Made by a program: the position numbers and the translations under genes
Shown: positions 1 through 51,928 of the stretch, one piece after another
Position numbering within the stretch: the first letter of the stretch is position 1
Layout: the number at the start of each line of letters is the position of its first letter
The notes under the pieces: generated by a model
Databases searched by the model: none
Told to the model about the DNA's origin: nothing
The model's input: only the letters and a program-made list of their open reading frames with translations
Source: Nemertoderma westbladi
Taxonomy: Eukaryota; Animalia; Xenacoelomorpha
NCBI GenBank assembly: GCA_032718475.1
Contig: JAUCBJ010000022.1
Span: 15,214 to 79,213, forward strand
DNA: 64,000 nt
Direction of reading: 5' to 3'

Positions 1-3000
1 TTGTGAATCTGTTTGCCCTTACCCGCACTCACCTGTGATTGTGTATCTGTTTGCCCTTACCCGCACTCACCTGTGATTGTGAATCTGTTTGCCCTTACCC
101 GCACTCACCTGTGATTGTGAATCTGTTTGCCCTTACCCGCACTCACCTGTGATTGCGTATCTGTTTGCCCTTACACGCACTTTTCCGTATCTGTTTGCCC
201 TTACCCGCACTCACCTGTGATTGTGAATCTGTTTGCCCTTACCCGCACTCACCTGTGATTGTGTATCTGTTTGCCCTTACCCGCACTCACCTGTGATTGT
301 GAATCTGTTTGCCCTTACACGCACTTTTCCGTATCTGTTTGCTCTTACCCGCACTCACCTGTGATTGCGTATCTGTTTGCCCTTACCCGCACTCACCTGT
401 GATTGCGTATCTGTTTGCCCTTACCCGCACTCACCTGTGATTGCGTATCTGTTTGCCCTTACCCGCACTCACCTGTGATTGTGAATCTGTTTGCCCTTAC
501 ACGCACTTTTCCGTATCTGTTTGCTCTTACCCGCACTCACCTGTGATTGTGAATCTGTTTGCCCTTACACGCACTTTTCCGTATCTGTTTGCTCTTACCC
601 GCACTCACCTGTGATTGTGTATCTGTTTGCTCTTACCCGCACTCACCTGTGATTGTGAATCTGTTTGCCCTTACACGCACTTTTCCGTATCTGTTTGCTC
701 TTACCCGCACTCACCTGTGATTGTGTATCTGTTTGCCCTTACCCGCACTCACCTGTGATTGTGTATCTGTTTGCCCTTACCCGCACTCACCTGTGATTGT
801 GAATCTGTTTGCCCTTACACGCACTTTTCCGTATCTGTTTGCCCTTACCCGCACTCACCTGTGATTGTGAATCTGTTTGCCCTTACCCGCACTCACCTGT
901 GATTGTGTATCTGTTTGCCCTTACCCGCACTCACCTGTGATTGTGAATCTGTTTGCCCTTACACTTTTCCGTATCTGTTTGCCCTTACCCGCACTCACCT
1001 GTGATTGTGTATCTGTTTGCTCTTACCCGCACTCACCTGTGATTGTGTATCTGTTTGCCCTTACCCGCACTCACCTGTGATTGTGAATCTGTTTGCCCTT
1101 ACACGCACTTTTCCGTATCTGTTTGCCCTTACCCGCACTCACCTGTGATTGTGTATCTGTTTGCTCTTACCCGCACTCACCTGTGATTGTGTATCTGTTT
1201 GCCCTTACCCGCACTCACCTGTGATTGTGTATCTGTTTGCCCTTACCCGCACTCACCTGTGATTGTGAATCTGTTTGCCCTTACACGCACTTTTCCGTAT
1301 CTGTTTGCCCTTACCCGCACTCACCTGTGATTGTGTATCTGTTTGCTCTTACCCGCACTCACCTGTGATTGTGTATCTGTTTGCCCTTACCCGCACTCAC
1401 CTGTGATTGTGAATCTGTTTGCCCTTACACGCACTTTTCCGTATCTGTTTGCCCTTACCCGCACTCACCTGTGATTGTGTATCTGTTTGCTCTTACCCGC
1501 ACTCACCTGTGATTGTGTATCTGTTTGCCCTTACCCGCACTCACCTGTGATTGTGAATCTGTTTGCCCTTACACGCACTTTTCCGTATCTGTTTGCTCTT
1601 ACCCGCACTCACCTGTGATTGTGTATCTGTTTGCCCTTACCCGCACTCACCTGTGATTGTGTATCTGTTTGCCCTTACCCGCACTCACCTGTGATTGTGA
1701 ATCTGTTTGCCCTTACACGCACTTTTCCGTATCTGTTTGCCCTTACACGCACTTTTCCGTATCTGTTTGCCCTTACCCGCACTCACCCGTGATTGTGAAT
1801 CTGTTTGCTCTTACCCGCACTCACCTGTGATTGTGTATCTGTTTGCCCTTACCCGCACTCACCTGTGATTGTGTATCTGTTTGCTCTTACCCGCACTCAC
1901 CTGTGATTGCGTATCTGTTTGCCCTTACCCGCACTCACCTGTGATTGTGAATCTGTTTGCCCTTACACGCACTCACCTGTGATTGTGAATCTGTTTGCCC
2001 TTACACGCACTTTTCCGTATCTGTTTGCTCTTACCCGCACTCACCTGTGATTGTGTATCTGTTTGCCCTTACCCGCACTCACCTGTGATTGTGTATCTGT
2101 TTGCTCTTACCCGCACTCACCTGTGATTGTGTATCTGTTTGCCCTTACCCGCACTCACCTGTGATTGTGTATCTGTTTGCCCTTACCCGCACTCACCTGT
2201 GATTGTGTATCTGTTTGCTCTTACCCGCACTCACCTGTGATTGTGTATCTGTTTGCTCTTACCCGCACTCACCTGTGATTGTGTATCTGTTTGACCTTAC
2301 CCGCACTCACCTGTGATTGCGTATCTGTTTGCCCTTACCCGCACTCACCTGTGATTGTGTATCTGTTTGCTCTTACCCGCACTCACCTGTGATTGTGAAT
2401 CTGTTTGCCCTTACACGCACTTTTCCGTATCTGTTTGCCCTTACCCGCACTCACCTGTGATTGTGAATCTGTTTGCCCTTACACGCACTTTTCCGTATCT
2501 GTTTGCCCTTACCCGCACTCACCTGTGATTGTGAATCTGTTTGCCCTTACACGCACTTTTCCGTATCTGTTTGCTCTTACCCGCACTCACCTGTGATTGT
2601 GTATCTGTTTGCTCTTACCCGCACTCACCTGTGATTGTGTATCTGTTTGCCCTTACCCGCACTCACCTGTGATTGTGTATCTGTTTGCTCTTACCCGCAC
2701 TCACCTGTGATTGTGTATCTGTTTGACCTTACCCGCACTCACCTGTGATTGTGAATCTGTTTGCCCTTACACGCACTTTTCCGTATCTGTTTGCTCTTAC
2801 CCGCACTCACCTGTGATTGCGTATCTGTTTGACCTTACCCGCACTCACCTGTGATTGTGAATCTGTTTGCCCTTACACGCACTTTTCCGTATCTGTTTGC
2901 CCTTACCCGCACTCACCTGTGATTGTGTATCTGTTTGACCTTACCCGCACTCACCTGTGATTGTGAATCTGTTTGCCCTTACACGCACTTTTCCGTATCT

Positions 3001-6000
3001 GTTTGCCCTTACCCGCACTCACCTGTGATTGTGTATCTGTTTGCCCTTACCCGCACTCACCTGTGATTGCGTATCTGTTTGCTCTTACCCGCACTCACCT
3101 GTGATTGCGTATCTGTTTGCTCTTACCCGCACTCACCTGTGATTGCGTATCTGTTTGCCCTTACACGCACTTTTCCGTATCTGTTTGCTCTTACCCGCAC
3201 TCACCTGTGATTGTGTATCTGTTTGCCCTTACCCGCACTCACCTGTGATTGCGTATCTGTTTGCCCTTACACGCACTTTTCCGTATCTGTTTGCTCTTAC
3301 CCGCACTCACCTGTGATTGTGTATCTGTTTGCCCTTACCCGCACTCACCTGTGATTGTGTATCTGTTTGCTCTTACCCGCACTCACCTGTGATTGTGTAT
3401 CTGTTTGACCTTACCCGCACTCACCTGTGATTGTGAATCTGTTTGCCCTTACACGCACTTTTCCGTATCTGTTTGCTCTTACCCGCACTCACCTGTGATT
3501 GTGTATCTGTTTGACCTTACCCGCACTCACCTGTGATTGCGTATCTGTTTGCCCTTACCCGCACTCACCTGTGATTGTGTATCTGTTTGCTCTTACCCGC
3601 ACTCACCTGTGATTGTGAATCTGTTTGCCCTTACCCGCACTCACCTGTGATTGTGTATCTGTTTGCCCTTACCCGCACTCACCTGTGATTGTGTATCTGT
3701 TTGCCCTTACACGCACTTTTCCGTATCTGTTTGCTCTTACCCGCACTCACCTGTGATTGCGTATCTGTTTGCCCTTACACGCACTTTTCCGTATCTGTTT
3801 GCTCTTACCCGCACTCACCTGTGATTGTGTATCTGTTTGCCCTTACCCGCACTCACCTGTGATTGTGTATCTGTTTGCCCTTACCCGCACTCACCTGTGA
3901 TTGTGTATCTGTTTGCTCTTACCCGCACTCACCTGTGATTGTGTATCTGTTTGCTCTTACCCGCACTCACCTGTGATTGTGAATCTGTTTGCCCTTACCC
4001 GCACTCACCTGTGATTGTGTATCTGTTTGCCCTTACCCGCACTCACCTGTGATTGTGTATCTGTTTGCCCTTACACGCACTTTTCCGTATCTGTTTGCTC
4101 TTACCCGCACTCACCTGTGATTGTGTATCTGTTTGCCCTTACCCGCACTCACCTGTGATTGTGTATCTGTTTGCCCTTACCCGCACTCACCTGTGATTGT
4201 GTATCTGTTTGCTCTTACCCGCACTCACCTGTGATTGTGTATCTGTTTGCTCTTACCCGCACTCACCTGTGATTGTGAATCTGTTTGCCCTTACCCGCAC
4301 TCACCTGTGATTGTGTATCTGTTTGCCCTTACCCGCACTCACCTGTGATTGTGTATCTGTTTGCCCTTACACGCACTTTTCCGTATCTGTTTGCTCTTAC
4401 CCGCACTCACCTGTGATTGTGTATCTGTTTGCCCTTACCCGCACTCACCTGTGATTGCGTATCTGTTTGCCCTTACCCGCACTCACCTGTGATTGTGTAT
4501 CTGTTTGCTCTTACCCGCACTCACCTGTGATTGTGAATCTGTTTGCCCTTACCCGCACTCACCTGTGATTGTGTATCTGTTTGCCCTTACCCGCACTCAC
4601 CTGTGATTGTGTATCTGTTTGCCCTTACACGCACTTTTCCGTATCTGTTTGCTCTTACCCGCACTCACCTGTGATTGCGTATCTGTTTGCCCTTACACGC
4701 ACTTTTCCGTATCTGTTTGCTCTTACCCGCACTCACCTGTGATTGTGTATCTGTTTGCCCTTACCCGCACTCACCTGTGATTGTGTATCTGTTTGCCCTT
4801 ACACGCACTTTTCCGTATCTGTTTGCTCTTACCCGCACTCACCTGTGATTGCGTATCTGTTTGCCCTTACACGCACTTTTCCGTATCTGTTTGCTCTTAC
4901 CCGCACTCACCTGTGATTGTGTATCTGTTTGCCCTTACACGCACTTTTCCGTATCTGTTTGCTCTTACCCGCACTCACCTGTGATTGTGTATCTGTTTGC
5001 CCTTACCCGCACTCACCTGTGATTGCGTATCTGTTTGCCCTTACACGCACTCACCTGTGATTGCGTATCTGTTTGCCCTTACACGCACTTTTCCGTATCT
5101 GTTTGCTCTTACCCGCACTCACCTGTGATTGTGTATCTGTTTGCCCTTACCCGCACTCACCTGTGATTGTGTATCTGTTTGCCCTTACACGCACTTTTCC
5201 GTATCTGTTTGCCCTTACCCGCACTCACCTGTGATTGTGTATCTGTTTGCCCTTACCCGCACTCACCTGTGATTGTGTATCTGTTTGCCCTTACACGCAC
5301 TTTTCCGTATCTGTTTGCTCTTACCCGCACTCACCTGTGATTGTGTATCTGTTTGCCCTTACCCGCACTCACCTGTGATTGTGTATCTGTTTGCTCTTAC
5401 CCGCACTCACCTGTGATTGTGTATCTGTTTGCCCTTACCCGCACTCACCTGTGATTGTGTATCTGTTTGCTCTTACCCGCACTCACCTGTGATTGTGAAT
5501 CTGTTTGCCCTTACCCGCACTCACCTGTGATTGTGAATCTGTTTGCCCTTACACGCACTTTTCCGTATCTGTTTGCTCTTACCCGCACTCACCTGTGATT
5601 GTGAATCTGTTTGCCCTTACACGCACTTTTCCGTATCTGTTTGCTCTTACCCGCACTCACCTGTGATTGTGAATCTGTTTGCCCTTACACGCACTTTTCC
5701 GTATCTGTTTGCTCTTACCCGCACTCACCTGTGATTGTGAATCTGTTTGCCCTTACACGCACTTTTCCGTATCTGTTTGCTCTTACCCGCACTCACCTGT
5801 GATTGTGAATCTGTTTGCCCTTACACGCACTTTTCCGTATCTGTTTGCTCTTACCCGCACTCACCTGTGATTGTCTATCTGTTTGCCCTTACCCGCACTC
5901 ACCTGTGATTGTGTATCTGTTTGCTCTTACCCGCACTCACCTGTGATTGTGAATCTGTTTGCCCTTACCCGCACTCACCCGTGATTGTGTATCTGTTTGC

Positions 6001-9000
6001 CCTTACCCGCACTCACCTGTGATTGTGAATCTGTTTGCCCTTACACGCACTTTTCCGTATCTGTTTGCTCTTACCCGCACTCACCTGTGATTGTGTATCT
6101 GTTTGCCCTTACACGCACTTTTCCGTATCTGTTTGCCCTTACACGCACTTTTCCGTATCTGTTTGCTCTTACCCGCACTCACCTGTGATTGTGAATCTGT
6201 TTGCCCTTACACGCACTTTTCCGTATCTGTTTGCTCTTACCCGCACTCACCTGTGATTGTGTATCTGTTTGCCCTTACCCGCACTCACCTGTGATTGTGA
6301 ATCTGTTTGCCCTTACACGCACTTTTCCGTATCTGTTTGCTCTTACCCGCACTCACCTGTGATTGTGTATCTGTTTGCCCTTACACGCACTTTTCCGTAT
6401 CTGTTTGCTCTTACCCGCACTCACCTGTGATTGTGTATCTGTTTGCCCTTACCCGCACTCACCTGTGATTGTGAATCTGTTTGCCCTTACACGCACTTTT
6501 CCGTATCTGTTTGCTCTTACCCGCACTCACCTGTGATTGTGTATCTGTTTGCCCTTACCCGCACTCACCTGTGATTGTGAATCTGTTTGCTCTTACACGC
6601 ACTTTTCCGTATCTGTTTGCCCTTACCCGCACTCACCTGTGATTGTGTATCTGTTTGCTCTTACACGCACTTTTCCGTATCTGTTTGCCCTTACACGCAC
6701 TTTTCCGTATCTGTTTGCCCTTACCCGCACTCACCTGTGATTGTGTATCTGTTTGCTCTTACACGCACTTTTCCGTATCTGTTTGCTCTTACCCGCACTC
6801 ACCTGTGATTGCGTATCTGTTTGCTCTTACACGCACTTTTCCGTATCTGTTTGCTCTTACCCGCACTCACCTGTGATTGTGAATCTGTTTGCCCTTACAC
6901 GCACTTTTCCGTATCTGTTTGCTCTTACCCGCACTCACCTGTGATTGTGTATCTGTTTGCCCTTACACGCACTTTTCCGTATCTGTTTGCTCTTACCCGC
7001 ACTCACCTGTGATTGTGTATCTGTTTGCCCTTACCCGCACTCACCTGTGATTGTGAATCTGTTTGCCCTTACACGCACTTTTCCGTATCTGTTTGCTCTT
7101 ACCCGCACTCACCTGTGATTGTGTATCTGTTTGCCCTTACCCGCACTCACCTGTGATTGTGAATCTGTTTGCCCTTACACGCACTTTTCCGTATCTGTTT
7201 GCTCTTACCCGCACTCACCTGTGATTGTGAATCTGTTTGCCCTTACACGCACTTTTCCGTATCTGTTTGCCCTTACCCGCACTCACCTGTGATTGTGAAT
7301 CTGTTTGCCCTTACACGCACTTTTCCGTATCTGTTTGCTCTTACCCGCACTCACCTGTGATTGTGAATCTGTTTGCCCTTACACGCACTTTTCCGTATCT
7401 GTTTGCCCTTACCCGCACTCACCTGTGATTGTGAATCTGTTTGCCCTTACACGCACTTTTCCGTATCTGTTTGCTCTTACCCGCACTCACCTGTGATTGT
7501 GTATCTGTTTGCTCTTACACGCACTTTTCCGTATCTGTTTGCTCTTACCCGCACTCACCTGTGATTGTGTATCTGTTTGCCCTTACCCGCACTCACCTGT
7601 GATTGTGTATCTGTTTGCTCTTACCCGCACTCACCTGTGATTGTGAATCTGTTTGCCCTTACACGCACTTTTCCGTATCTGTTTGCTCTTACCCGCACTC
7701 ACCTGTGATTGTGAATCTGTTTGCCCTTACACGCACTTTTCCGTATCTGTTTGCCCTTACCCGCACTCACCTGTGATTGTGAATCTGTTTGCCCTTACAC
7801 GCACTTTTCCGTATCTGTTTGCTCTTACCCGCACTCACCTGTGATTGTGAATCTGTTTGCCCTTACACGCACTTTTCCGTATCTGTTTGCTCTTACCCGC
7901 ACTCACCTGTGATTGTGTATCTGTTTGCCCTTACCCGCACTCACCTGTGATTGTGTATCTGTTTGCTCTTACCCGCACTCACCTGTGATTGTGAATCTGT
8001 TTGCCCTTACACGCACTTTTCCGTATCTGTTTGCTCTTACCCGCACTCACCTGTGATTGTGAATCTGTTTGCCCTTACCCGCACTCACCTGTGATTGTGA
8101 ATCTGTTTGCCCTTACACGCACTTTTCCGTATCTGTTTGCTCTTACCCGCACTCACCTGTGATTGTGTATCTGTTTGCCCTTACACGCACTTTTCCGTAT
8201 CTGTTTGCCCTTACCCGCACTCACCTGTGATTGTGAATCTGTTTGCCCTTACACGCACTTTTCCGTATCTGTTTGCTCTTACCCGCACTCACCTGTGATT
8301 GTGAATCTGTTTGCCCTTACACGCACTTTTCCGTATCTGTTTGCTCTTACCCGCACTCACCTGTGATTGTGTATCTGTTTGCCCTTACCCGCACTCACCT
8401 GTGATTGTGTATCTGTTTGCTCTTACCCGCACTCACCTGTGATTGTGAATCTGTTTGCCCTTACACGCACTTTTCCGTATCTGTTTGCTCTTACCCGCAC
8501 TCACCTGTGATTGTGAATCTGTTTGCCCTTACACGCACTTTTCCGTATCTGTTTGCCCTTACACGCACTTTTCCGTATCTGTTTGCTCTTACCCGCACTC
8601 ACCTGTGATTGCGTATCTGTTTGCTCTTACCCGCACTCACCTGTGATTGTGAATCTGTTTGCCCTTACACGCACTTTTCCGTATCTGTTTGCTCTTACCC
8701 GCACTCACCTGTGATTGTGTATCTGTTTGCCCTTACCCGCACTCACCTGTGATTGTGTATCTGTTTGCTCTTACCCGCACTCACCTGTGATTGTGAATCT
8801 GTTTGCCCTTACACGCACTTTTCCGTATCTGTTTGCTCTTACCCGCACTCACCTGTGATTGTGTATCTGTTTGCCCTTACCCGCACTCACCTGTGATTGT
8901 GTATCTGTTTGCTCTTACCCGCACTCACCTGTGATTGTGTATCTGTTTGCTCTTACCCGCACTCACCTGTGATTGTGTATCTGTTTGCCCTTACACGCAC

Positions 9001-12000
9001 TTTTCCGTATCTGTTTGCTCTTACCCGCACTCACCTGTGATTGTGTATCTGTTTGCCCTTACCCGCACTCACCTGTGATTGTGTATCTGTTTGCTCTTAC
9101 CCGCACTCACCTGTGATTGTGAATCTGTTTGCCCTTACACGCACTTTTCCGTATCTGTTTGCTCTTACCCGCACTCACCTGTGATTGTGTATCTGTTTGC
9201 TCTTACCCGCACTCACCTGTGATTGTGAATCTGTTTGCTCTTACCCGCACTCACCTGTGATTGTGAATCTGTTTGCCCTTACACGCACTTTTCCGTATCT
9301 GTTTGCTCTTACCCGCACTCACCTGTGATTGCGTATCTGTTTGCTCTTACCCGCACTCACCTGTGATTGTGAATCTGTTTGCCCTTACACGCACTTTTCC
9401 GTATCTGTTTGCTCTTACCCGCACTCACCTGTGATTGTGTATCTGTTTGCCCTTACCCGCACTCACCTGTGATTGTGTATCTGTTTGCTCTTACCCGCAC
9501 TCACCTGTGATTGTGAATCTGTTTGCCCTTACACGCACTTTTCCGTATCTGTTTGCTCTTACCCGCACTCACCTGTGATTGTGTATCTGTTTGCCCTTAC
9601 CCGCACTCACCTGTGATTGTGTATCTGTTTGCTCTTACCCGCACTCACCTGTGATTGTGTATCTGTTTGCTCTTACCCGCACTCACCTGTGATTGTGTAT
9701 CTGTTTGCCCTTACACGCACTTTTCCGTATCTGTTTGCTCTTACCCGCACTCACCTGTGATTGTGTATCTGTTTGCCCTTACCCGCACTCACCTGTGATT
9801 GTGTATCTGTTTGCTCTTACCCGCACTCACCTGTGATTGTGAATCTGTTTGCCCTTACACGCACTTTTCCGTATCTGTTTGCTCTTACCCGCACTCACCT
9901 GTGATTGTGTATCTGTTTGCTCTTACCCGCACTCACCTGTGATTGTGTATCTGTTTGCCCTTACCCGCACTCACCTGTGATTGTGTATCTGTTTGCTCTT
10001 ACCCGCACTCACCTGTGATTGTGTATCTGTTTGCCCTTACACGCACTTTTCCGTATCTGTTTGCCCTTACACGCACTTTTCCGTATCTGTTTGCTCTTAC
10101 CCGCACTCACCTGTGATTGTGTATCTGTTTGCCCTTACCCGCACTCACCTGTGATTGTGTATCTGTTTGCTCTTACCCGCACTCACCTGTGATTGTGTAT
10201 CTGTTTGCTCTTACCCGCACTCACCTGTGATTGTGTATCTGTTTGCTCTTACCCGCACTCACCTGTGATTGTGTATCTGTTTGCCCTTACACGCACTTTT
10301 CCGTATCTGTTTGCCCTTACACGCACTTTTCCGTATCTGTTTGCTCTTACCCGCACTCACCTGTGATTGTGTATCTGTTTGCCCTTACCCGCACTCACCT
10401 GTGATTGTGTATCTGTTTGCTCTTACCCGCACTCACCTGTGATTGTGTATCTGTTTGCCCTTACACGCACTTTTCCGTATCTGTTTGCTCTTACCCGCAC
10501 TCACCTGTGATTGTGAATCTGTTTGCCCTTACACGCACTTTTCCGTATCTGTTTGCTCTTACCCGCACTCACCTGTGATTGTGTATCTGTTTGCTCTTAC
10601 CCGCACTCACCTGTGATTGTGTATCTGTTTGCCCTTACACGCACTTTTCCGTATCTGTTTGCCCTTACACGCACTTTTCCGTATCTGTTTGCTCTTACCC
10701 GCACTCACCTGTGATTGCGTATCTGTTTGCTCTTACCCGCACTCACCTGTGATTGTGAATCTGTTTGCCCTTACCCGCACTCACCTGTGATTGTGTATCT
10801 GTTTGCTCTTACCCGCACTCACCTGTGATTGTGAATCTGTTTGCCCTTACACGCACTTTTCCGTATCTGTTTGCTCTTACACGCACTTTTCCGTATCTGT
10901 TTGCTCTTACCCGCACTCACCTGTGATTGCGTATCTGTTTGCTCTTACCCGCACTCACCTGTGATTGTGAATCTGTTTGCCCTTACCCGCACTCACCTGT
11001 GATTGTGTATCTGTTTGCTCTTACCCGCACTCACCTGTGATTGTGAATCTGTTTGCCCTTACACGCACTTTTCCGTATCTGTTTGCTCTTACCCGCACTC
11101 ACCTGTGATTGTGTATCTGTTTGCCCTTACCCGCACTCACCTGTGATTGTGAATCTGTTTGCCCTTACACGCACTTTTCCGTATCTGTTTGCTCTTACCC
11201 GCACTCACCTGTGATTGCGTATCTGTTTGCTCTTACCCGCACTCACCTGTGATTGTGAATCTGTTTGCCCTTACACGCACTTTTCCGTATCTGTTTGCTC
11301 TTACCCGCACTCACCTGTGATTGTGTATCTGTTTGCCCTTACCCGCACTCACCTGTGATTGTGTATCTGTTTGCTCTTACCCGCACTCACCTGTGATTGT
11401 GAATCTGTTTGCCCTTACACGCACTTTTCCGTATCTGTTTGCTCTTACCCGCACTCACCTGTGATTGTGTATCTGTTTGCCCTTACCCGCACTCACCTGT
11501 GATTGTGTATCTGTTTGCTCTTACCCGCACTCACCTGTGATTGTGTATCTGTTTGCTCTTACCCGCACTCACCTGTGATTGTGTATCTGTTTGCTCTTAC
11601 CCGCACTCACCTGTGATTGTGTATCTGTTTGCTCTTACCCGCACTCACCTGTGATTGTGTATCTGTTTGCCCTTACACGCACTTTTCCGTATCTGTTTGC
11701 CCTTACACGCACTTTTCCGTATCTGTTTGCTCTTACCCGCACTCACCTGTGATTGTGTATCTGTTTGCCCTTACCCGCACTCACCTGTGATTGTGTATCT
11801 GTTTGCTCTTACCCGCACTCACCTGTGATTGTGTATCTGTTTGCTCTTACCCGCACTCACCTGTGATTGTGTATCTGTTTGCTCTTACCCGCACTCACCT
11901 GTGATTGTGTATCTGTTTGCCCTTACACGCACTTTTCCGTATCTGTTTGCCCTTACACGCACTTTTCCGTATCTGTTTGCTCTTACCCGCACTCACCTGT

Positions 12001-24000: not shown

Positions 24001-27000
24001 ATCTGTTTGCCCTTACACGCACTTTTCCGTATCTGTTTGCTCTTACCCGCACTCACCTGTGATTGTGTATCTGTTTGCCCTTACCCGCACTCACCTGTGA
24101 TTGTGAATCTGTTTGCCCTTACACGCACTTTTCCGTATCTGTTTGCCCTTACCCGCACTCACCTGTGATTGCGTATCTGTTTGCCCTTACCCGCACTCAC
24201 CTGTGATTGTGAATCTGTTTGCCCTTACACGCACTTTTCCGTATCTGTTTGCCCTTACCCGCACTCACCTGTGATTGTGTATCTGTTTGCCCTTACCCGC
24301 ACTCACCTGTGATTGCGTATCTGTTTGCCCTTACCCGCACTCACCTGTGATTGTGAATCTGTTTGCCCTTACACGCACTTTTCCGTATCTGTTTGCTCTT
24401 ACCCGCACTCACCTGTGATTGTGTATCTGTTTGCCCTTACCCGCACTCACCTGTGATTGTGAATCTGTTTGCCCTTACACGCACTTTTCCGTATCTGTTT
24501 GCCCTTACACGCACTCACCTGTGATTGCGTATCTGTTTGCCCTTACCCGCACTCACCTGTGATTGCGTATCTGTTTGCCCTTACACGCACTTTTCCGTAT
24601 CTGTTTGCTCTTACCCGCACTCACCTGTGATTGTGTATCTGTTTGCCCTTACCCGCACTCACCTGTGATTGTGAATCTGTTTGCCCTTACACGCACTTTT
24701 CCGTATCTGTTTGCCCTTACCCGCACTCACCTGTGATTGCGTATCTGTTTGCCCTTACCCGCACTCACCTGTGATTGTGAATCTGTTTGCCCTTACACGC
24801 ACTTTTCCGTATCTGTTTGCCCTTACACGCACTCACCTGTGATTGCGTATCTGTTTGCCCTTACCCGCACTCACCTGTGATTGCGTATCTGTTTGCCCTT
24901 ACACGCACTTTTCCGTATCTGTTTGCTCTTACCCGCACTCACCTGTGATTGTGTATCTGTTTGCCCTTACCCGCACTCACCTGTGATTGCGTATCTGTTT
25001 GCCCTTACCCGCACTCACCTGTGATTGCGTATCTGTTTGCCCTTACCCGCACTCACCTGTGATTGTGAATCTGTTTGCCCTTACCCGCACTCACCTGTGA
25101 TTGCGTATCTGTTTGCCCTTACCCGCACTCACCTGTGATTGCGTATCTGTTTGCCCTTACCCGCACTCACCTGTGATTGTGAATCTGTTTGCCCTTACCC
25201 GCACTCACCTGTGATTGTGAATCTGTTTGCCCTTACACGCACTTTTCCGTATCTGTTTGCCCTTACCCGCACTCACCTGTGATTGCGTATCTGTTTGCCC
25301 TTACCCGCACTCACCTGTGATTGCGTATCTGTTTGCCCTTACACGCACTTTTCCGTATCTGTTTGCCCTTACCCGCACTCACCTGTGATTGCGTATCTGT
25401 TTGCCCTTACACGCACTCACCTGTGATTGCGTATCTGTTTGCCCTTACCCGCACTCACCTGTGATTGCGTATCTGTTTGCCCTTACCCGCACTCACCTGT
25501 GATTGTGAATCTGTTTGCCCTTACCCGCACTCACCTGTGATTGTGAATCTGTTTGCCCTTACACGCACTTTTCCGTATCTGTTTGCCCTTACCCGCACTC
25601 ACCTGTGATTGCGTATCTGTTTGCCCTTACCCGCACTCACCTGTGATTGCGTATCTGTTTGCCCTTACACGCACTTTTCCGTATCTGTTTGCCCTTACCC
25701 GCACTCACCTGTGATTGCGTATCTGTTTGCCCTTACACGCACTCACCTGTGATTGCGTATCTGTTTGCCCTTACCCGCACTCACCTGTGATTGCGTATCT
25801 GTTTGCCCTTACCCGCACTCACCTGTGATTGTGAATCTGTTTGCCCTTACCCGCACTCACCTGTGATTGTGAATCTGTTTGCCCTTACACGCACTTTTCC
25901 GTATCTGTTTGCCCTTACCCGCACTCACCTGTGATTGCGTATCTGTTTGCCCTTACCCGCACTCACCTGTGATTGTGAATCTGTTTGCCCTTACACGCAC
26001 TTTTCCGTATCTGTTTGCCCTTACCCGCACTCACCTGTGATTGCGTATCTGTTTGCCCTTACCCGCACTCACCTGTGATTGCGTATCTGTTTGCCCTTAC
26101 CCGCACTCACCTGTGATTGCGTATCTGTTTGCCCTTACACGCACTTTTCCGTATCTGTTTGCTCTTACCCGCACTCACCTGTGATTGCGTATCTGTTTGC
26201 CCTTACCCGCACTCACCTGTGATTGCGTATCTGTTTGCCCTTACCCGCACTCACCTGTGATTGCGTATCTGTTTGCCCTTACCCGCACTCACCTGTGATT
26301 GCGTATCTGTTTGCCCTTACCCGCACTCACCTGTGATTGCGTATCTGTTTGCCCTTACCCGCACTCACCTGTGATTGTGAATCTGTTTGCCCTTACACGC
26401 ACTTTTCCGTATCTGTTTGCTCTTACCCGCACTCACCTGTGATTGCGTATCTGTTTGCCCTTACCCGCACTCACCTGTGATTGCGTATCTGTTTGCCCTT
26501 ACACGCACTTTTCCGTATCTGTTTGCTCTTACCCGCACTCACCTGTGATTGTGTATCTGTTTGCCCTTACACGCACTTTTCCGTATCTGTTTGCTCTTAC
26601 CCGCACTCACCTGTGATTGTGAATCTGTTTGCTCTTACCCGCACTCACCTGTGATTGCGTATCTGTTTGCCCTTACCCGCACTCACCTGTGATTGCGTAT
26701 CTGTTTGCCCTTACCCGCACTCACCTGTGATTGCGTATCTGTTTGCCCTTACCCGCACTCACCTGTGATTGCGTATCTGTTTGCCCTTACCCGCACTCAC
26801 CTGTGATTGCGTATCTGTTTGCCCTTACCCGCACTCACCTGTGATTGTGAATCTGTTTGCCCTTACACGCACTTTTCCGTATCTGTTTGCTCTTACCCGC
26901 ACTCACCTGTGATTGCGTATCTGTTTGCCCTTACCCGCACTCACCTGTGATTGCGTATCTGTTTGCCCTTACACGCACTTTTCCGTATCTGTTTGCTCTT

Positions 27001-30000
27001 ACCCGCACTCACCTGTGATTGTGTATCTGTTTGCCCTTACACGCACTTTTCCGTATCTGTTTGCTCTTACCCGCACTCACCTGTGATTGTGAATCTGTTT
27101 GCCCTTACACGCACTTTTCCGTATCTGTTTGCTCTTACCCGCACTCACCTGTGATTGTGTATCTGTTTGCTCTTACACGCACTTTTCCGTATCTGTTTGC
27201 TCTTACCCGCACTCACCTGTGATTGCGTATCTGTTTGCCCTTACCCGCACTCACCTGTGATTGCGTATCTGTTTGCCCTTACCCGCACTCACCTGTGATT
27301 GCGTATCTGTTTGCCCTTACCCGCACTCACCTGTGATTGCGTATCTGTTTGCCCTTACCCGCACTCACCTGTGATTGCGTATCTGTTTGCCCTTACCCGC
27401 ACTCACCTGTGATTGTGTATCTGTTTGCTCTTACCCGCACTCACCTGTGATTGTGTATCTGTTTGCTCTTACACGCACTTTTCCGTATCTGTTTGCCCTT
27501 ACACGCACTTTTCCGTATCTGTTTGCTCTTACCCGCACTCACCTGTGATTGCGTATCTGTTTGCCCTTACCCGCACTCACCTGTGATTGTGTATCTGTTT
27601 GCTCTTACACGCACTTTTCCGTATCTGTTTGCCCTTACACGCACTTTTCCGTATCTGTTTGCTCTTACCCGCACTCACCTGTGATTGCGTATCTGTTTGC
27701 CCTTACCCGCACTCACCTGTGATTGTGTATCTGTTTGCTCTTACCCGCACTCACCTGTGATTGCGTATCTGTTTGCCCTTACCCGCACTCACCTGTGATT
27801 GCGTATCTGTTTGCCCTTACCCGCACTCACCTGTGATTGTGAATCTGTTTGCCCTTACACGCACTTTTCCGTATCTGTTTGCTCTTACCCGCACTCACCT
27901 GTGATTGTGTATCTGTTTGCCCTTACCCGCACTCACCTGTGATTGTGTATCTGTTTGCTCTTACCCGCACTCACCTGTGATTGCGTATCTGTTTGCCCTT
28001 ACCCGCACTCACATGTGATTGTGTATCTGTTTGCCCTTACCCGCACTCACCTGTGATTGTGTATCTGTTTGCTCTTACCCGCACTCACCTGTGATTGCGT
28101 ATCTGTTTGCCCTTACCCGCACTCACATGTGATTGTGTATCTGTTTGCCCTTACCCGCACTCACCTGTGATTGCGTATCTGTTTGCCCTTACCCGCACTC
28201 ACCTGTGATTGTGTATCTGTTTGCTCTTACCCGCACTCACCTGTGATTGTGTATCTGTTTGACCTTACCCGCACTCACATGTGATTGTGTATCTGTTTGC
28301 CCTTATCCGCACTCACCTGTGATTGCGTATCTGTTTGCCCATACCCTCACTCACCTGTGATTGCGTTTGCCCTTACCCGCACTCACCCGTGATTGTGAAT
28401 CAGTTTGCCCTTACCCGCACTCACCTGTGATTGCGTATCTGTTTGCCCTTACCCGCACTCACCTGTGATTGTGTATCTGTTTGCTCTTACCCGCACTCAC
28501 CTGTGATTGTGTATCTGTTTGACCTTACCCGCACTCACATGTGATTGTGTATCTGTTTGCCCTTATCCGCACTCACCTGTGATTGTGTATCTGTTTGCTC
28601 TTACCCGCACTCACCTGTGATTGTGTATCTGTTTGACCTTACCCGCACTCACATGTGATTGTGTATCTGTTTGCCCTTATCCGCACTCACCTGTGATTGC
28701 GTATCTGTTTGCCCATACCCTCACTCACCTGTGATTGCGTTTGCCCTTACCCGCACTCACCCGTGATTGTGAATCTGTTTGCCCTTACCCGCACTCACCT
28801 GTGATTGCGTATCTGTTTGCCCTTACCCGCACTCACCTGTGATTGTGAATCTGTTTGCCCTTACACGCACTCACCTGTGATTGCGTTTGCCCTTACCCGC
28901 ACTCACCTGTGATTGCGTATCTGTTTGCCCTTACCCGCACTCACCTGTGATTGCGTTTGCCCTTACCCGCACTCACCCGTGATTGTGAATCTGTTTGCCC
29001 TTACCCGCACTCACCTGTGATTGCGTATCTGTTTGCCCTTACCCGCACTCACCTGTGATTGTGAATCTGTTTGCCCTTACACGCACTCACCTGTGATTGC
29101 GTTTGCCCTTACCCGCACTCACCTGTGATTGCGTATCTGTTTGCCCTTACCCGCACTCACCTGTGATTGTGTATCTGTTTGCTCTTACCCGCACTCACAT
29201 GTGATTGTGTATCTGTTTGCCCTTACCCGCACTCACCCGTGATTGTGAATCTGTTTGCCCTTACCCGCACTCACCTGTGATTGCGTATCTGTTTGCCCTT
29301 ACCCGCACTCACCTGTGATTGTGAATCTGTTTGCCCTTACACGCACTCACCTGTGATTGCGTTTGCCCTTACCCGCACTCACCTGTGATTGCGTATCTGT
29401 TTGCCCTTACCCGCACTCACCTGTGATTGCGTATCTGTTTGCCCTTACCCGCACTCACCTGTGATTGTGAATCTGTTTGCCCTTACACGCACTCACCTGT
29501 GATTGCGTTTGCCCTTACCCGCACTCACCTGTGATTGCGTATCTGTTTGCCCTTACCCGCACTCACCTGTGATTGTGAATCTGTTTGCCCTTACACGCAC
29601 TCACCTGTGATTGCGTTTGCCCTTACCCGCACTCACCTGTGATTGCGTATCTGTTTGCCCTTACCCGCACTCACCTGTGATTGTGAATCTGTTTGCCCTT
29701 ACCCGCACTCACCTGTGATTGCGTATCTGTTTGCCCTTACCCGCACTCACCTGTGATTGTCTATCTGTTTGCCCTTACCCGCACTCACCTGTGATTGCGT
29801 TTGCCCTTACCCGCACTCACCCGTGATTGCGTTTGCCCTTACCCGCACTCACCTGTGATTGTGTATCTGTTTGCTCTTACCCGCACTCACATGTGATTGC
29901 GTATCTGTTTGCCCTTACCCGCACTCACCTGTGATTGTGTATCTGTTTGCCCTTATCCGCACTCACCTGTGATTGCGTTTGCCCTTACCCGCACTCACCT

Positions 30001-33000
30001 GTGATTGCGTATCTGTTTGCCCTTACCCGCACTCACCTGTGATTGTCTATCTGTTTGCCCTTACCCGCACTCACCTGTGATTGCGTTTGCCCTTACCCGC
30101 ACTCACCTGTGATTGCGTATCTGTTTGCCCTTACCCGCACTCACCTGTGATTGTCTATCTGTTTGCCCTTATCCGCACTCACCTGTGATTGCGTTTGCCC
30201 TTACCCGCACTCACCTGTGATTGCGTATCTGTTTGCCCTTACCCGCACTCACCTGTGATTGTCTATCTGTTTGCCCTTATCCGCACTCACCTGTGATTGC
30301 GTTTGCCCTTACCCGCACTCACCTGTGATTGCGTATCTGTTTGCCCTTACCCGCACTCACCTGTGATTGTCTATCTGTTTGCCCTTACCCGCACTCACCT
30401 GTGATTGCGTTTGCCCTTACCCGCACTCACCCGTGATTGCGTTTGCCCTTACCCGCACTCACCTGTGATTGTGTATCTGTTTGCCCTTACCCGCACTCAC
30501 CTGTGATTGTGTATCTGTTTGCCCTTACCCGCACTCACCTGTGATTGTGTATCTGTTTGCTCTTACCCGCACTCACATGTGATTGCGTATCGGTTTGCCC
30601 TTACCCGCACTCACCTGTGATTGCGTTTGCCCTTACCCGCACTCACCCGTGATTGCGTATCGGTTTGCCCTTACCCGCACTCACCTGTGATTGCGTTTGC
30701 CCTTACCCGCACTCACCCGTGATTGCGTTTGCCCTTACCCGCACTCACCCGTGATTGTGTATCTGTTTGCCCTTACCCGCACTCACCTGTGATTGCGTAT
30801 CTGTTTGCTCTTACCCGCACTCACCCGTGATTGTGAATCTGTTTGCCCTTAACCGCACTCACCTGTGATTGTGTATCTGTTTGCTCTTACCCGCACTCAC
30901 ATGTGATTGCGTATCGGTTTGCCCTTACCCGCACTCACCTGTGATTGCGTTTGCCCTTACCCGCACTCACCCGCGATTGTGAATCTGTTTGCCCTTACCC
31001 GCACTCACCTGTGATTGCGTATCTGTTTGCCCTTACCCGCACTCACCTGTGATTGTGTATCTGTTTGCCCTTACCCGCACTCACCTGTGATTGCGTATCT
31101 GTTTGCCCTTACCCGCACTCACCTGTGATTGCGTTTGCCCTTACCCGCACTCACCCGTGATTGCGTTTGCCCTTACCCGCACTCACCCGTGATTGTGTAT
31201 CTGTTTGCCCTTACCCGCACTCACCTGTGATTGCGTATCTGTTTGCTCTTACCCGCACTCACCCGTGATTGTGAATCTGTTTGCCCTTAACCGCACTCAC
31301 CTGTGATTGTGTATCTGTTTGCTCTTACCCGCACTCACCTGTGATTGCGTATCTGTTTGCCCTTACCCGCACTCACCTGTGATTGCGTATCTGTTTGCCC
31401 TTACCCGCACTCACCTGTGATTGCGTATCTGTTTGCCCTTACCCGCACTCACCTGTGATTGCGTATCTGTTTGCCCTTACCCGCACTCACCCGTGATTGT
31501 GTATCTGTTTGCCCTTACCCGCACTCACCTGTGATTGCGTATCTGTTTGCTCTTACCCGCACTCACCCGTGATTGTGAATCTGTTTGCCCTTAACCGCAC
31601 TCACCTGTGATTGTGTATCTGTTTGCTCTTACCCGCACTCACCTGTGATTGCGTATCTGTTTGCCCTTACCCGCACTCACCTGTGATTGCGTATCTGTTT
31701 GCCCTTACCCGCACTCACCTGTGATTGCGTTTGCCCTTACCCGCACTCACCTGTGATTGCGTTTGCCCTTACCCGCACTCACCCGTGATTGCGTTTGCCC
31801 TTACCCGCACTCACCCGTGATTGTGTATCTGTTTGCCCTTACCCGCACTCACCTGTGATTGCGTATCTGTTTGCCCTTACCCGCACTCACCTGTGATTGC
31901 GTATCTGTTTGCCCTTACCCGCACTCACCTGTGATTGCGTATCTGTTTGCTCTTACCCGCACTCACCCGTGATTGTGAATCTGTTTGCCCTTAACCGCAC
32001 TCACCTGTGATTGTGTATCTGTTTGCTCTTACCCGCACTCACATGTGATTGCGTATCGGTTTGCCCTTACCCGCACTCACCTGTGATTGCGTTTGCCCTT
32101 ACCCGCACTCACCTGTGATTGTGTATCTGTTTGCTCTTACCCGCACTCACATGTGATTGCGTATCGGTTTGCCCTTACCCGCACTCACATGTGATTGCGT
32201 ATCTGTTTGCCCATACCCTCACTCACCTGTGATTGTCTATCTGTTTGCCCTTACCCGCACTCACCTGTGATTGCGTATCTGTTTGCCCATACCCTCACTC
32301 ACCTGTGATTGTCTATCTGTTTGCCCTTACCCGCACTCACCTGTGATTGCGTATCTGTTTGCCCTTACCCGCACTCACCTGTGATTGCGTATCTGTTTGC
32401 CCTTATCCGCACTCACCTGTGATTGCGTATCTGTTTGCCCTTATCCGCACTCACCTGTGATTGCGTATCTGTTTGCCCATACCCGCACTCACCTGTGATT
32501 GCGTATCTGTTTGCCCTTATCCGCACTCACCTGTGATTGCGTATCTGTTTGCCCATACCCGCACTCACCTGTGATTGCGTTTGCCCTTACCCGCACTCAC
32601 CCGTGATTGTGAATCTGTTTGCCCTTACCCGCACTCACCTGTGATTGCGTATCTGTTTGCCCTTACCCGCACTCACCTGTGATTGCGTATCTGTTTGCCC
32701 TTATCCGCACTCACCTGTGATTGCGTATCTGTTTGCCCATACCCTCACTCACCTGTGATTGCGTTTGCCCTTACCCGCACTCACCCGTGATTGTGAATCT
32801 GTTTGCCCTTACCCGCACTCACCTGTGATTGCGTATCTGTTTGCCCTTATCCGCACTCACCTGTGATTGCGTATCTGTTTGCCCATACCCGCACTCACCT
32901 GTGATTGCGTTTGCCCTTACCCGCACTCACCCGTGATTGTGAATCTGTTTGCCCTTACCCGCACTCACCTGTGATTGCGTATCTGTTTGCCCTTACCCGC

Positions 33001-36000
33001 ACTCACCTGTGATTGCGTATCTGTTTGCCCTTATCCGCACTCACCTGTGATTGCGTATCTGTTTGCCCATACCCTCACTCACCTGTGATTGCGTTTGCCC
33101 TTACCCGCACTCACCCGTGATTGTGAATCTGTTTGCCCTTACCCGCACTCACCTGTGATTGTGTATCTGTTTGCTCTTACCCGCACTCACCTGTGATTGC
33201 GTATCTGTTTGCCCTTACCCGCACTCACCTGTGATTGCGTTTGCCCTTACCCGCACTCACCCGTGATTGTGAATCTGTTTGCCCTTACCCGCACTCACCT
33301 GTGATTGCGTATCTGTTTGCCCATACCCTCACTCACCTGTGATTGCGTTTGCCCTTACCCGCACTCACCCGTGATTGTGAATCTGTTTGCCCTTACCCGC
33401 ACTCACCTGTGATTGCGTATCTGTTTGCCCTTATCCGCACTCACCTGTGATTGCGTATCTGTTTGCCCATACCCTCACTCACCTGTGATTGCGTTTGCCC
33501 TTACCCGCACTCACCCGTGATTGTGAATCTGTTTGCCCTTACCCGTAATCACCTGTGATTGCGTATCTGTTTGCCCTTACACGCACATTTGCGTATCTGT
33601 TTGCCCTTACCCGCACTCACCTGTGATTGTCTATCTGTTTGCCCTTACCCGTAATCACCTGTGATTGCGTATCTGTTTGCCCTTACCCGCACTCACCTGT
33701 GATTGCGTATCTGTTTGCCCTTATCCGCACTCACCTGTGATTGCGTATCTGTTTGCCCATACCCTCACTCACCTGTGATTGCGTTTGCCCTTACCCGCAC
33801 TCACCCGTGATTGTGAATCTGTTTGCCCTTACCCGCACTCACCCGTGATTGTGAATCTGTTTGCCCTTACCCGCACTCACCTGTGATTGCGTATCTGTTT
33901 GCCCTTACACACACTCACCTGTGATTGCGTTTGCCCTTACCCGCACTCACCCGTGATTGTGAATCTGTTTGCCCTTACCCGCACTCACCTGTGATTGTGT
34001 ATCTGTTTGCCCTTACCCGCACTCACCTGTGATTGCGTTTGCCCTTACCCGCACTCACCCGTGATTGTGAATCTGTTTGCCCTTACCCGCACTCACCTGT
34101 GATTGCGTATCTGTTTGCCCATACCCTCACTCACCTGTGATTGCGTTTGCCCTTACCCGCACTCACCCGTGATTGTGAATCTGTTTGCCCTTACCCGCAC
34201 TCACCTGTGATTGCGTATCTGTTTGCCCTTACCCGCACTCACCTGTGATTGTGTATCTGTTTGCTCTTACCCGCACTCACCTGTGATTGCGTATCTGTTT
34301 GCCCTTATCCGCACTCACCTGTGATTGCGTATCTGTTTGCCCTTACCCGCACTCACCTGTGATTGTGTATCTGTTTGCCCTTACCCGCACTCACCTGTGA
34401 TTGCGTATCTGTTTGCCCTTACCCGCACTCACCTGTGATTGTGAATCTGTTTGCTCTTACCCGCACTCACCTGTGATTGTGAATCTGTTTGCCCTTATCC
34501 GCACTCACCTGTGATTGCGTATCTGTTTGCCCTTACCCGCACTCACCTGTGATTGTGTATCTGTTTGCCCTTACCCGCACTCACCTGTGATTGTGTATCT
34601 GTTTGCCCTTACCCGCACTCACCTGTGATTGTCTATCTGTTTGCCCTTACCCGTAATCACCTGTGATTGCGTATCTGTTTGCCCTTACCCGCACTCACCT
34701 GTGATTGCGTATCTGTTTGCCCTTACCCGCACTCACCTGTGATTGCGTATCTGTTTGCCCTTATCCGCACTCACCTGTGATTGCGTATCTGTTTGCCCTT
34801 ACCCGCACTCACCTGTGATTGTGTATCTGTTTGCCCTTACCCGCACTCACCTGTGATTGCGTATCTGTTTGCCCTTACACGCACTCACCTGTGATTGCGT
34901 ATCTGTTTGCCCTTACCCGCACTCACCTGTGATTGTGTATCTGTTTGCTCTTACCCGCACTCACCTGTGATTGTGAATCTGTTTGCCCTTATCCGCACTC
35001 ACCTGTGATTGCGTATCTGTTTGCCCTTACCCGCACTCACCTGTGATTGTGTATCTGTTTGCCCTTACCCGCACTCACCTGTGATTGTGTATCTGTTTGC
35101 CCTTACCCGCACTCACCTGTGATTGCGTATCTGTTTGCCCTTACACGCACTCACCTGTGATTGTGTATCTGTTTGCCCATACCCGCACTCACCTGTGATT
35201 GTCTATCTGTTTGCCCTTACCCGCACTCACCTGTGATTGCGTATCTGTTTGCCCTTATCCGCACTCACCTGTGATTGCGTATCTGTTTGCCCTTATCCGC
35301 ACTCACCTGTGATTGCGTATCTGTTTGCCCTTACCCGCACTCACCTGTGATTGCGTATCTGTTTGCCCTTATCCGCACTCACCTGTGATTGCGTATCTGT
35401 TTGCCCATACCCTCACTCACCTGTGATTGTCTATCTGTTTGCCCTTACCCGTAATCACCTGTGATTGCGTATCTGTTTGCCCTTACCCGCACTCACCTGT
35501 GATTGCGTATCTGTTTGCCCTTATCCGCACTCACCTGTGATTGCGTATCTGTTTGCCCATACCCTCACTCACCTGTGATTGCGTTTGCCCTTACCCGCAC
35601 TCACCCGTGATTGTGAATCTGTTTGCCCTTACCCGCACTCACCTGTGATTGTGTATCTGTTTGCTCTTACCCGCACTCACCTGTGATTGCGTATCTGTTT
35701 GCCCTTATCCGCACTCACCTGTGATTGCGTATCTGTTTGCCCTTATCCGCACTCACCTGTGATTGCGTATCTGTTTGCCCTTACCCGCACTCACCTGTGA
35801 TTGCGTATCTGTTTGCCCTTATCCGCACTCACCTGTGATTGCGTATCTGTTTGCCCATACCCTCACTCACCTGTGATTGCGTTTGCCCTTACCCGCACTC
35901 ACCCGTGATTGTGAATCTGTTTGCCCTTACCCGCACTCACCTGTGATTGCGTATCTGTTTGCCCTTACACGCACATTTGCGTATCTGTTTGCCCTTACCC

Positions 36001-37066
36001 GCACTCACCTGTGATTGTCTATCTGTTTGCCCTTACCCGTAATCACCTGTGATTGCGTATCTGTTTGCCCTTACCCGCACTCACCCGTGATTGTGAATCT
36101 GTTTGCCCTTACCCGCACTCACCTGTGATTGCGTATCTGTTTGCCCTTACCCGCACTCACCTGTGATTGTGTATCTGTTTGCTCTTACCCGCACTCACAT
36201 GTGATTGTGTATCTGTTTGCCCTTACCCGCACTCACATGTGATTGCGTATCGGTTTGCCCTTACCCGCACTCACCTGTGATTGCGTTTGCCCTTACCCGC
36301 ACTCACCCGTGATTGTGAATCTGTTTGCCCTTACCGCACTCACCCGTGATTGTGAATCTGTTTGCCCTTACACGCACTCACCTGTGATTGCGTATCTGTT
36401 TGCCCTTACCCGCACTCACCTGTGATTGTCTATCTGTTTGCCCTTACCCGCACTCACCTGTGATTGTGTATCTGTTTGCCCTTACCGCACTCACCCGTGA
36501 TTGTGAATCTGTTTGCCCTTACACGCACTCACCTGTGATTGCGTATCTGTTTGCCCTTACCCGCACTCACCTGTGATTGTCTATCTGTTTGCCCTTACCC
36601 GCACTCACCTGTGATTGTGTATCTGTTTGCCCTTACCCGCACTCACCCGTGATTGTGAATCTGTTTGCCCTTACCGCACTCACCCGTGATTGTGAATCTG
36701 TTTGCCCTTACACGCACTCACCTGTGATTGCGTATCTGTTTGCCCTTACACGCACTTTTCCGTATCTGTTTGCCCTTACCCGCACTCACCTGTGATTGTC
36801 TATCTGTTTGCCCTTACCCGCACTCACCTGTGATTGTGTATCTGTTTGCTCTTACCCGCACTCACATGTGATTGCGTATCGGTTTGCCCTTACCCGCACT
36901 CACCTGTGATTGCGTTTGCCCTTACCCGCACTCACCCGTGATTGTGAATCTGTTTGCCCTTACCCGTAATCACCTGTGATTGCGTATCTGTTTGCCCTTA
37001 CCCGTAATCACCTGTGATTGCGTATCTGTTTGCCCTTACCCGCACTCACCTGTGATTGCGTATCTG
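1..37066. repeat. Satellite array, 38-bp unit GTATCTGTTTGCCCTTACCCGCACTCACCTGTGATTGY with 30-bp (GTATCTGTTTGCCCTTACACGCACTTTTCC) and 32-bp (ATCTGT-deleted) variants; runs off the left edge
   Basis: Uninterrupted head-to-tail repetition from position 1 to ...TGATTGCGTATCTG at 37066, then unique sequence. Confidence 0.99.
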
Positions 37067-37136
37067 GGTCATTTCCACACTGATTAGCTTTCGTCTTTGC
37101 CTCACCAGATGCGATAGCTGCATGAACGTACGGAGC
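37050..37136 (-). CDS. FAM53: FAM53-like gene, putative coding exon 4 (APYVHAAIASGEAKTKANQCGNDPDTQSQ); its last 17 nt are the start of the satellite
   Basis: Minus strand: CTGAC branch-like motif (37188-37184), long pyrimidine tract TTTCGTTATTCCTCGCCTCTTATTCGTTATTTCTTCTGCTAG, 87 nt open in phase 0 (matching the previous exon end), then donor CAG|GTGAGT. The peptide itself has no recognisable homology. Confidence 0.7.
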
Positions 37137-37809: not shown

Positions 37810-38405
37810 ATCCTTCATCTTGCATAAGTCTAGGAATGGTCTCCGTCGCTTCAGTCCTAGTTTCCTATGCTGACACTGTCCGAGGGAGGGTTGGCTACGA
37901 CAACGAGGTTTCCCGCCGTTCGGCATCCGCTTACCGGTTGCCACACGAACCGGGCCGGGCGCCAACCCGGGACTGAACCGACTCAACTCGATAGCACCGA
38001 GGCCCTCCGTGAGACTGATGGACCGGAAGTCGCACGGACTGTCGTCACTTCCGGGGGGGCTGACCAGCCAGGCGAACTGCTCCACGCTGGCGGGTCTCCA
38101 CGGCGACGGCTGCGGTGTCGGCGACGACTCGCCGCTCCAGGCGCCGCCGCAGCGCGGCGACGCGGAGCTCGCGGGTCGGATCGGGACCGGAGCGAATATC
38201 CGACGCACCTCATCCTCGGCGGCCACCGATAACTCGTCCTCGAGACTCCGACAGTGGCGTTTCGCAAGCGGCACGGATCGCTCGCCCGCGTCTATACGGT
38301 AGACCGAACGGGATTGGTACTTTCGTAACCCGGGCGATGGGCAGAACGCGGATACGGAGGGAGTTGCATTTGAACTGATCCGTGACCACGGAGTCTCTGG
38401 TGAGG
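37810..38405 (-). CDS. FAM53: FAM53-like gene, main coding exon (596 nt, GC-rich)
   Basis: Motifs KRHCRSL, RPASSAS, SPWRP, RCRSQP and KRRRPFLDLCKMK resemble FAM53A/B/C motifs as I recall them (KRHCRSLS, RPSSAS, RCRSQPC, RPSLDFLKM). Acceptor TTTGTTTCACAG| at 38406 and donor GAT|GTTAGT at 37809. The frame is open 43 codons upstream of the listed 37792-38274 ORF. Confidence 0.88.
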
Positions 38406-39691: not shown

Positions 39692-39752
39692 CCGAAGGCG
39701 TCACATTCAATTCTTGGGAAAGTTGATTGTTATTATTAGCTGCATCAGCAAA
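39692..39752 (-). CDS. FAM53: FAM53-like gene, coding exon 2 (FADAANNNNQLSQELNVTPS)
   Basis: Acceptor TTTTCTTTTCAG|, donor G|GTAAGT. The 61-nt exon goes from phase 0 to phase 1 and exactly bridges the flanking exons. Confidence 0.78.
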
Positions 39753-40136: not shown

Positions 40137-40220
40137 TTGATTTGCTATTCGACCGCTAATAATTGACGCCCCATCTTGAATGCGTTGGTTCTGTAGTTTC
40201 TCTGTTATAATTGATACCAT
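40137..40220 (-). CDS. FAM53: FAM53-like gene, first coding exon (MVSIITEKLQNQRIQDGASIISGRIANQ)
   Basis: N-terminus resembles FAM53A MVTLITEKLQSQSL (recalled); donor CAA|GTGAGT at 40136. An acceptor TTTTATCACAG| at 40250 implies an upstream non-coding exon. Confidence 0.88.
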
Positions 40221-40747
40221 TTCATTATTATAACATTGTAATATATAACCTGTGATAAAATAATTGCAACTCCGACCAGGCGTGAACCTGTTTCTTTGAG
40301 TAATATTTACATCGTAGTCGTTGATCCCGTCATCACTGTATTATAATTACAAATAAAACAAATAAAATGTAAATACGCAAGGTACATCACAAAGACATAA
40401 AGAATTCAGCTGTTTTCTGTTTAGAAGTTATCTTGTTAGGAGTACCACGCTGTAAGCTATTATACTGTTATATACTGCTATACGACATATGGTTGTATAA
40501 CCAGATCACTGTCAGCTGTATCAGTGTATGGGTCTGCACCTAGCCTCTAGGCCTACTGTTCAGAGCTAGTAGCATATGTAGAGAGAGAGAGATGGCCATA
40601 ATTCTTTGATTCATGATAATATGCCTGCCTGCCTATTGCATGTATTGCCAACTTACGGACTAAGATCTGTACCGGTACTGGTAGATGGATAGTTAGATTT
40701 ATTTATGCATTATGAAAAAACAATAACAAATACATCAAACAACGGAA

Positions 40748-51736: not shown

Positions 51737-51928
51737 CCTGAACTCGAGCAGCTCGATTATCCTCTTGAAACTCAATTTGTGAGCTGTAGTTTATCGTCCG
51801 GATCCACCACTTACAACTGTAGCTACTGTATCTACAATATGTATTTAATAATGCCTAGTAACCAAATATATGGTTATATTCTGATCAACCGTAAAGACGG
51901 TATTAAAAAGACTGGTGTATCTTTTTAC

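Follow-up and report, generated by a model that had tools for sequence, protein, structure and literature searches.

A splice-donor array of about 1,021 tandem units, likely intronic, at an exon boundary of a FAM53-like gene in Nemertoderma westbladi

In a 64,000-nucleotide stretch of the Nemertoderma westbladi genome (assembly GCA_032718475.1, contig JAUCBJ010000022.1, positions 15,214 to 79,213; hereafter the window), a FAM53-like gene on the minus strand runs into a 37-kb tandem array whose first unit straddles an exon-intron boundary. We think it probable that the gene is spliced from the first donor of this array to an exon outside the window, and that the array itself is an extreme expansion, at the level of the individual, of a short minisatellite copied from the splice junction. 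The array likely lies in an intron, since in two other samples the spliced RNA connects the first donor with an exon that the window does not contain.

All four visible coding exons are on the minus strand. The first (40137..40416), with its ATG at 40220 and 5′ UTR to 40416, is covered by a contig of run X4; exon 2 (39692..39752, 61 nt) has both of its joints in X4; exon 3 (37810..38405, 596 nt) carries two FAM53-like motifs and is joined in X4; and exon 4 (37050..37136, 87 nt or 29 codons) is joined to exon 3 in both X4 and X5. When they are joined exactly (40220-40137, 39752-39692, 38405-37810, and 37136-37050), 828 nt result, or 276 codons with no stop, and the three introns between them measure 384, 1286, and 673 nt, all of them GT..AG. 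A reading made earlier from the sequence only had put the gene at about 276 stop-free codons with introns of 0.4-1.3 kb, and the exact joining agrees. What we take as the visible part of intron 4 occupies 1..37049 on the same strand, at least 37,049 nt, with the 3′ end outside the window. A candidate exon at ~39156 was discarded; it has a stop in frame and is skipped by X4. Within 40417-42507, a further upstream, non-coding exon is likely: an acceptor-like CAG precedes the 5′ UTR piece ending at 40416, the X4 contig has 2 unaligned letters beyond 40416, and a donor-like site near 42505, the one match to the donor pattern used, is a candidate for its end. Inside intron 2, at 39200-39375, lies a very high-copy dispersed repeat, seen in the cDNA runs as well, with a summed depth of tens of thousands in X1 and X2.

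The identity of the gene was addressed with the Pfam FAM53 profile (PF15242; length 304, cut-off 27 bits), scanning single exons or parts of them. Exon 3 as a whole scored 14.1 bits (E 0.041) and its sub-pieces 16.9 (E 0.0059), 15.4, and 12.7, all below the cut-off. Four of the 9 gene pieces matched FAM53 and none of the 9 matched another family, with no Pfam match for exon 1 (3 scans), exon 4, or one 27-aa piece. As in vertebrate FAM53A/B/C, the two motifs stand in family order, with profile positions 102-126 near the start of exon 3 and positions 263-302 where the exon ends; at 12.7-16.9 bits they fall under the cut-off. On these two collinear sub-threshold matches, “FAM53-like” seems a reasonable name, with membership in the family not established. 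The Pfam model stops where exon 3 ends, and the C-terminal motif that the sequence-only reading had named for the family lies beyond it, and beyond the 30 letters seen of the next exon. No protein relative of exon 3 was found in a word-index search at three settings or among 1.84 billion representatives, there was no usable Atlas match, and the one PDB match was a chance one (E 0.52); this absence of relatives says nothing against FAM53 identity. The family is described as little known in the accessible text of PMC13132546, a role in Wnt/beta-catenin signaling is reported for vertebrate FAM53B in that of PMC10600473, and an exact-phrase search of the open-access literature returned nothing relevant on invertebrate FAM53.

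Just upstream of the gene, at 43562-52433 on the minus strand, sits a BEL/Pao-type LTR retrotransposon, with Pfam domains DUF1759, Peptidase_A17, integrase, and DUF5641 in separate reading frames. Of the 491 letters aligned between its two LTRs, 489 agree, and there is a single gap of 5 bases, which makes this a young insertion; no target-site duplication was evident at the element ends inspected. Farther along are a perfect 84-bp inverted repeat without spacer (59778-59945), which is either a real hairpin element or an assembly artefact, a 292/147-bp tandem family with a 10-bp repeat that is present twice (54200-55220 and 56970-57510), and a 290-bp dimer (61977-62554).

The evidence that the gene continues past the array comes from spliced RNA. 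The region is present in five public sequencing runs from three studies, with X6 left out of the comparison. Four runs were aligned to 37029-40600, and two of these, X4 (study P3, sample S3) and X5 (study P2, sample S2), are cDNA-like. No run is recorded as RNA, and the status of these two was judged from the alignment pattern: both cover the exons, have joints across GT-AG introns, and leave the introns nearly bare except at dispersed repeats. Because the GT-AG introns are joined and nearly uncovered, we take X4 and X5 to be cDNA. All three internal introns are seen joined in X4, and the last one in X5. Both runs depart from the window at precisely the same place, 37050, where the first CAG/GTGAGT lies (37044..37052, minus strand), and both go on beyond it, X5 for 31 letters and X4 for 565 letters of a 643-letter contig. 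The 30 non-repeat letters adjoining this joint are identical in the two runs, that is, in two studies, and have no match in the window with up to 3 mismatches allowed. These letters make ten open codons in frame, as do 53% of 10-codon windows in flanking DNA. No extra array unit occurs in the X4 or X5 contigs, so splicing starts from the first donor. Both spliced runs (2/2) thus use the most upstream site, as read from contigs, which conceal rare forms through the loss of rare variants, such that minor donor use could be invisible. First-donor splicing is established for S3 and for S2, a sample with an apparently short array, but not for the 37-kb allele; for this haplotype, we infer that the next exon lies to the left of the window.

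These results support two proposals of the sequence-only reading, namely that the gene continues, as seen in the splicing of X4 and X5 from 37050 into a common sequence foreign to the window, and that the array is intronic rather than 3′ UTR, as seen in the spliced contigs of two studies. Its alternative was read-through past exon 4. The translation it gave for this, VSAGKGKQIRNHR and then a stop, is correct, with the TGA in the second unit, 39 nt into the array. As an account of where the gene ends, the alternative loses ground: the donor at 37050 is used in two studies, and the array lacks a poly(A) signal, neither AATAAA nor ATTAAA occurring on its transcribed strand.

Tandem-repeat analysis places the array at 1-37066, with a period of 38, 1021.3 copies, 85% matches, and a score of 51252; lying on the minus strand, its ~1,021 units run off the left edge of the window. 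The first unit consists of the last 17 nt of exon 4 and the first 21 nt of intron 4. Cutting at an anchor gave 1022 pieces of 65 kinds, the longest of 42 nt. Among the units, 778 are 38 bp long, 184 are 30 bp, 43 are 32 bp, and a few have odd lengths. G+C content is ~49%, versus 31-48% to the right, the strand skew is strong, and words of the unit longer than 12 letters are absent from the rest of the window. A terminal exon hidden within the array was considered and rejected, as none of the 1022 pieces is a unique insert and no sense-strand stop-free stretch exceeds 44 codons. Identical-monomer runs of 8-18 recur at short offsets, with 18 such cases in the array versus 0 in 10 shuffles, and from these recurring runs the array would appear to have grown by local block duplication. 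The monomer types are unevenly placed, 32-bp units being mostly near the exon, and most of the 30-bp units that lack a donor lying past ~28 kb in the direction of position 1. Units with single-copy indels, which look like errors, are concentrated at 15.5-22.9 kb of the array; hence the assembled length and order are uncertain.

CAG/GTGAGT is present in 750 of the 1,021 units, variants of it in 86, and no donor in 185, and the number of donor-like sites rises to 1,546 when the second site of each unit is counted. The CAG/GTGAGT donors fit the consensus MAG/guragu at 9/9 places; the 26.9 kb of the same strand outside the array hold only 2 occurrences of MAG/GTRAGT, versus the 750 in 37 kb. Not one of the 1,545 alternative donors after the first gives an extension of exon 4 that is in frame and free of stops, and mis-spliced products are therefore likely to be destroyed. 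Stopped or frameshifted messages are likely degraded by nonsense-mediated decay. Selection for weak decoys nearest the exon was also entertained, given that units 2 and 3 carry CAG/GTGATT, a variant found in 7 of 1,021 units; the idea was dropped, as the variant is apparently not shared, the S2 contigs ceasing to match the window at this variant.

The size of the array was compared between samples by aligning runs to 36991-37260, which covers two units and exon 4. X1 may be the source run of the window and is not independent, and X2 and X3 are DNA runs of S2, the sample that also gave the cDNA of X5. In X1, repeat-contig depth is as high as 8143 among the matches listed (8 of 23 records), with a unique flank at 12.6-14.2. 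By comparison, X2 has a single 68-letter repeat contig at depth 101.9 versus 17.5-33.7 for the flank (all 4 records), and X3 has repeat contigs at 115.7 at most versus 7-8 (all 6 records). As rough ratios of repeat to single-copy depth, these correspond to 573-646 in X1 (from the deepest among the matches listed), 3-6 in X2, and 8-16 in X3. The contrast between X1 and S2 is thus roughly 35-210-fold, with contig depth a rough guide only, since it is no copy number and the filter omits records, such that the S2 array could be undercounted. Taken on these terms, the depths point to an oversized allele of what is ordinarily a short repeat rather than to a giant intron that is fixed, and the S2 copy number may be within the usual minisatellite range. 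An exit from the array into unique intron was seen in no contig of any run.

What S2 does have in common with the window is monomer variants: its first unit is of a type found 25 times in the window, and a 30-bp-type unit also occurs in X3. The repeat probably predates the split of the S2 and window haplotypes, which would differ mainly in copy number. Scaled to the 398 window copies of the same words, the X1 depth corresponds to ~53-60 kb of repeat on each chromosome when the two both carry it, or to ~107 kb when one does, rough values that assume all of the repeat to be at this locus. Provided that the array was assembled from X1, it is not a product of the assembly process, because the X1 depth covers the assembled amount and the monomer order is non-random. 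Position 37067 offers a usable allele marker, with G in the window and T in X2, X3, X4, and X5; the T form changes Pro to Thr in exon 4 and extends the match to the repeat unit by one base. The X1 contig breaks at 37068, which may mean that both forms are present in X1.

Minisatellites that span a splice donor have precedents in human genes. The VNTR of F7 intron 7 has a 37-bp unit in 5-9 copies (Borensztajn et al. 2006, PMC1557585), and the accessible part of the same article gives similar cases in 6-16 (25 pseudo-sites), CBS (15-20), LAMIN B2 (10-15), and PDGF (16-18), and reports that splicing in arrays of the F7 type is confined to the first donor or to the first three. The N. westbladi array is like these in that its first monomer straddles the boundary between exon and intron, further copies of the donor follow within the intron, and splicing, in S2 and S3, starts from the most upstream copy. 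In unit size, too, it is near F7 (38 bp versus 37 bp), and rough contig depth points to variation in array length between individuals. Unlike the F7-type cases, with their 5-25 copies, it comprises at least 1,021 units, 750 consensus donors, and 37 kb, ~40 times the largest case in the accessible part of PMC1557585. The layout is known from human genes and the scale is new; this is an extreme case of a known arrangement. In the open-access literature, an exact-phrase search found no satellite-scale donor array, and the available text of a mouse PAR preprint (10.1101/2022.03.26.485930) and of PMC10078293 treats large or splicing-linked repeats without a donor array.

Putting this together, the origin of the array would have been a tandem duplication of a 38-bp piece spanning the donor, as the sequence of the unit indicates. 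The repeat would then have diversified into a few monomer types common to individuals and been amplified by local block duplications, presumably through slippage or unequal exchange, with the expansion to satellite scale taking place in the lineage of this individual. In S2 and S3 the spliceosome picks the donor farthest upstream, in parallel with intron 7 of human F7, and it would do so on the long allele as well. Any use of other donors should lead to a frameshift or stop, and such transcripts would likely be destroyed and not yield new proteins. On this account the organism probably tolerates the long allele, which would be close to neutral and lower output modestly if at all.

Several other accounts need to be weighed against this one. 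The main rival is that the long allele damages the gene: its 750 perfect donors, or its purine-rich repeat of 37+ kb, might cause mis-splicing, decay, or stalled transcription and so leave this individual with a weak or null allele. In favor of this, only perfect-consensus pseudo-sites drew some splicing in F7 constructs (accessible part of PMC1557585) and the array donors match at 9/9 places; moreover, every alternative donor means a frameshift or stop, and repetitive introns are said to be likely to hinder polymerase in the available text of PMC11207136. We nevertheless consider damage unlikely, as the reading frame is intact where visible, both samples with spliced RNA use the first donor, and among the matches listed X1 has just 3 variants in 37068-39188, all of low depth, which would fit two chromosomes that are alike here. 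A different possibility is that the whole species has this giant satellite intron and that selection maintains it to delay transcription of a Wnt-linked regulator. The span of at least 37 kb, versus 0.4-1.3 kb for the other introns, invites this idea, as do the 10-80 kb given for timer-type genes in the accessible part of PMC11207136 and the ~53-107 kb of repeat implied by X1 depth if all of it is at the locus. The sequence-only reading drew a parallel with Drosophila Y-loop genes, of which kl-3 and kl-5 have introns of hundreds of kb to Mb, conserved in size across species (Fingerhut et al. 2024, PMC11207136, accessible part). There is a likeness, in that a big intron of tandem repeat stands between small exons; unlike those of kl-3 and kl-5, however, this intron measures tens of kb as far as it is seen (at least 37 kb) and is built from the gene’s own splice junction, and, in place of a conserved size, the array is apparently short in another sample of the species, by rough contig depth. 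Both S2 DNA runs reach only ~3-16 times single-copy depth, leaving the array roughly 35-200-fold smaller by depth in the same organism, which leans against the Y-loop parallel, and vertebrate FAM53B is the sole source of the Wnt link. Size alone, in the light of 10-80 kb timers, permits a delay; it is the apparent short allele in the same species that disfavors a fixed role, and with the array looking short in S2 the built-in delay of the sequence-only reading, a timer in effect, is unsupported. We regard the delay account as quite improbable.

The gene could also end at the array on this haplotype, either by read-through to the TGA in unit 2 or because the 3′ exons have been separated from it by a break or mis-join. 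The array does leave the window, a downstream exon is absent within the window, and there are error-like units in mid-array. Yet two studies show use of the donor, which is intact, a poly(A) signal is absent from the array, and the X1 depth is enough for all of the repeat assembled or more, in a monomer order that is non-random; such an ending is very improbable. It is barely credible, finally, that the units serve as recursive splice sites or as cassettes of a tiny intron (24 nt, GT..AG) and a 14 nt micro-exon. Full units do carry both CAG/GTGAGT and an AG ending 24 nt past the donor. However, none of the 4,057 AGs in the array exceeds 9 pyrimidines in the 15 preceding places, versus 11-12 at the three real acceptors, and the longest pyrimidine run in the array is 3 (a weak measure, as intron 2 reaches only 4). 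Moreover, the RNA contigs are without an extra unit, by which the notion is contradicted for mature RNA.

First-donor splicing and an individual-level expansion thus remain our preferred explanation. A bolder extension, offered tentatively and as possible rather than probable, is that a splice-junction minisatellite is here turning into a satellite, that alleles of ~ten to more than 1,000 units segregate in one species, and that the at least 750 perfect U1-binding donors which the long allele places in a single pre-mRNA alter the timing or output of a FAM53-type regulator. If this is true, the locus would provide a natural allelic series for the way in which the spliceosome chooses one donor among hundreds of identical ones. 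Should the long allele be spliced correctly, first-donor choice would hold against 750 identical competitors; should it be mis-spliced, a wild-type genome would be carrying a repeat-expansion allele of a developmental regulator.
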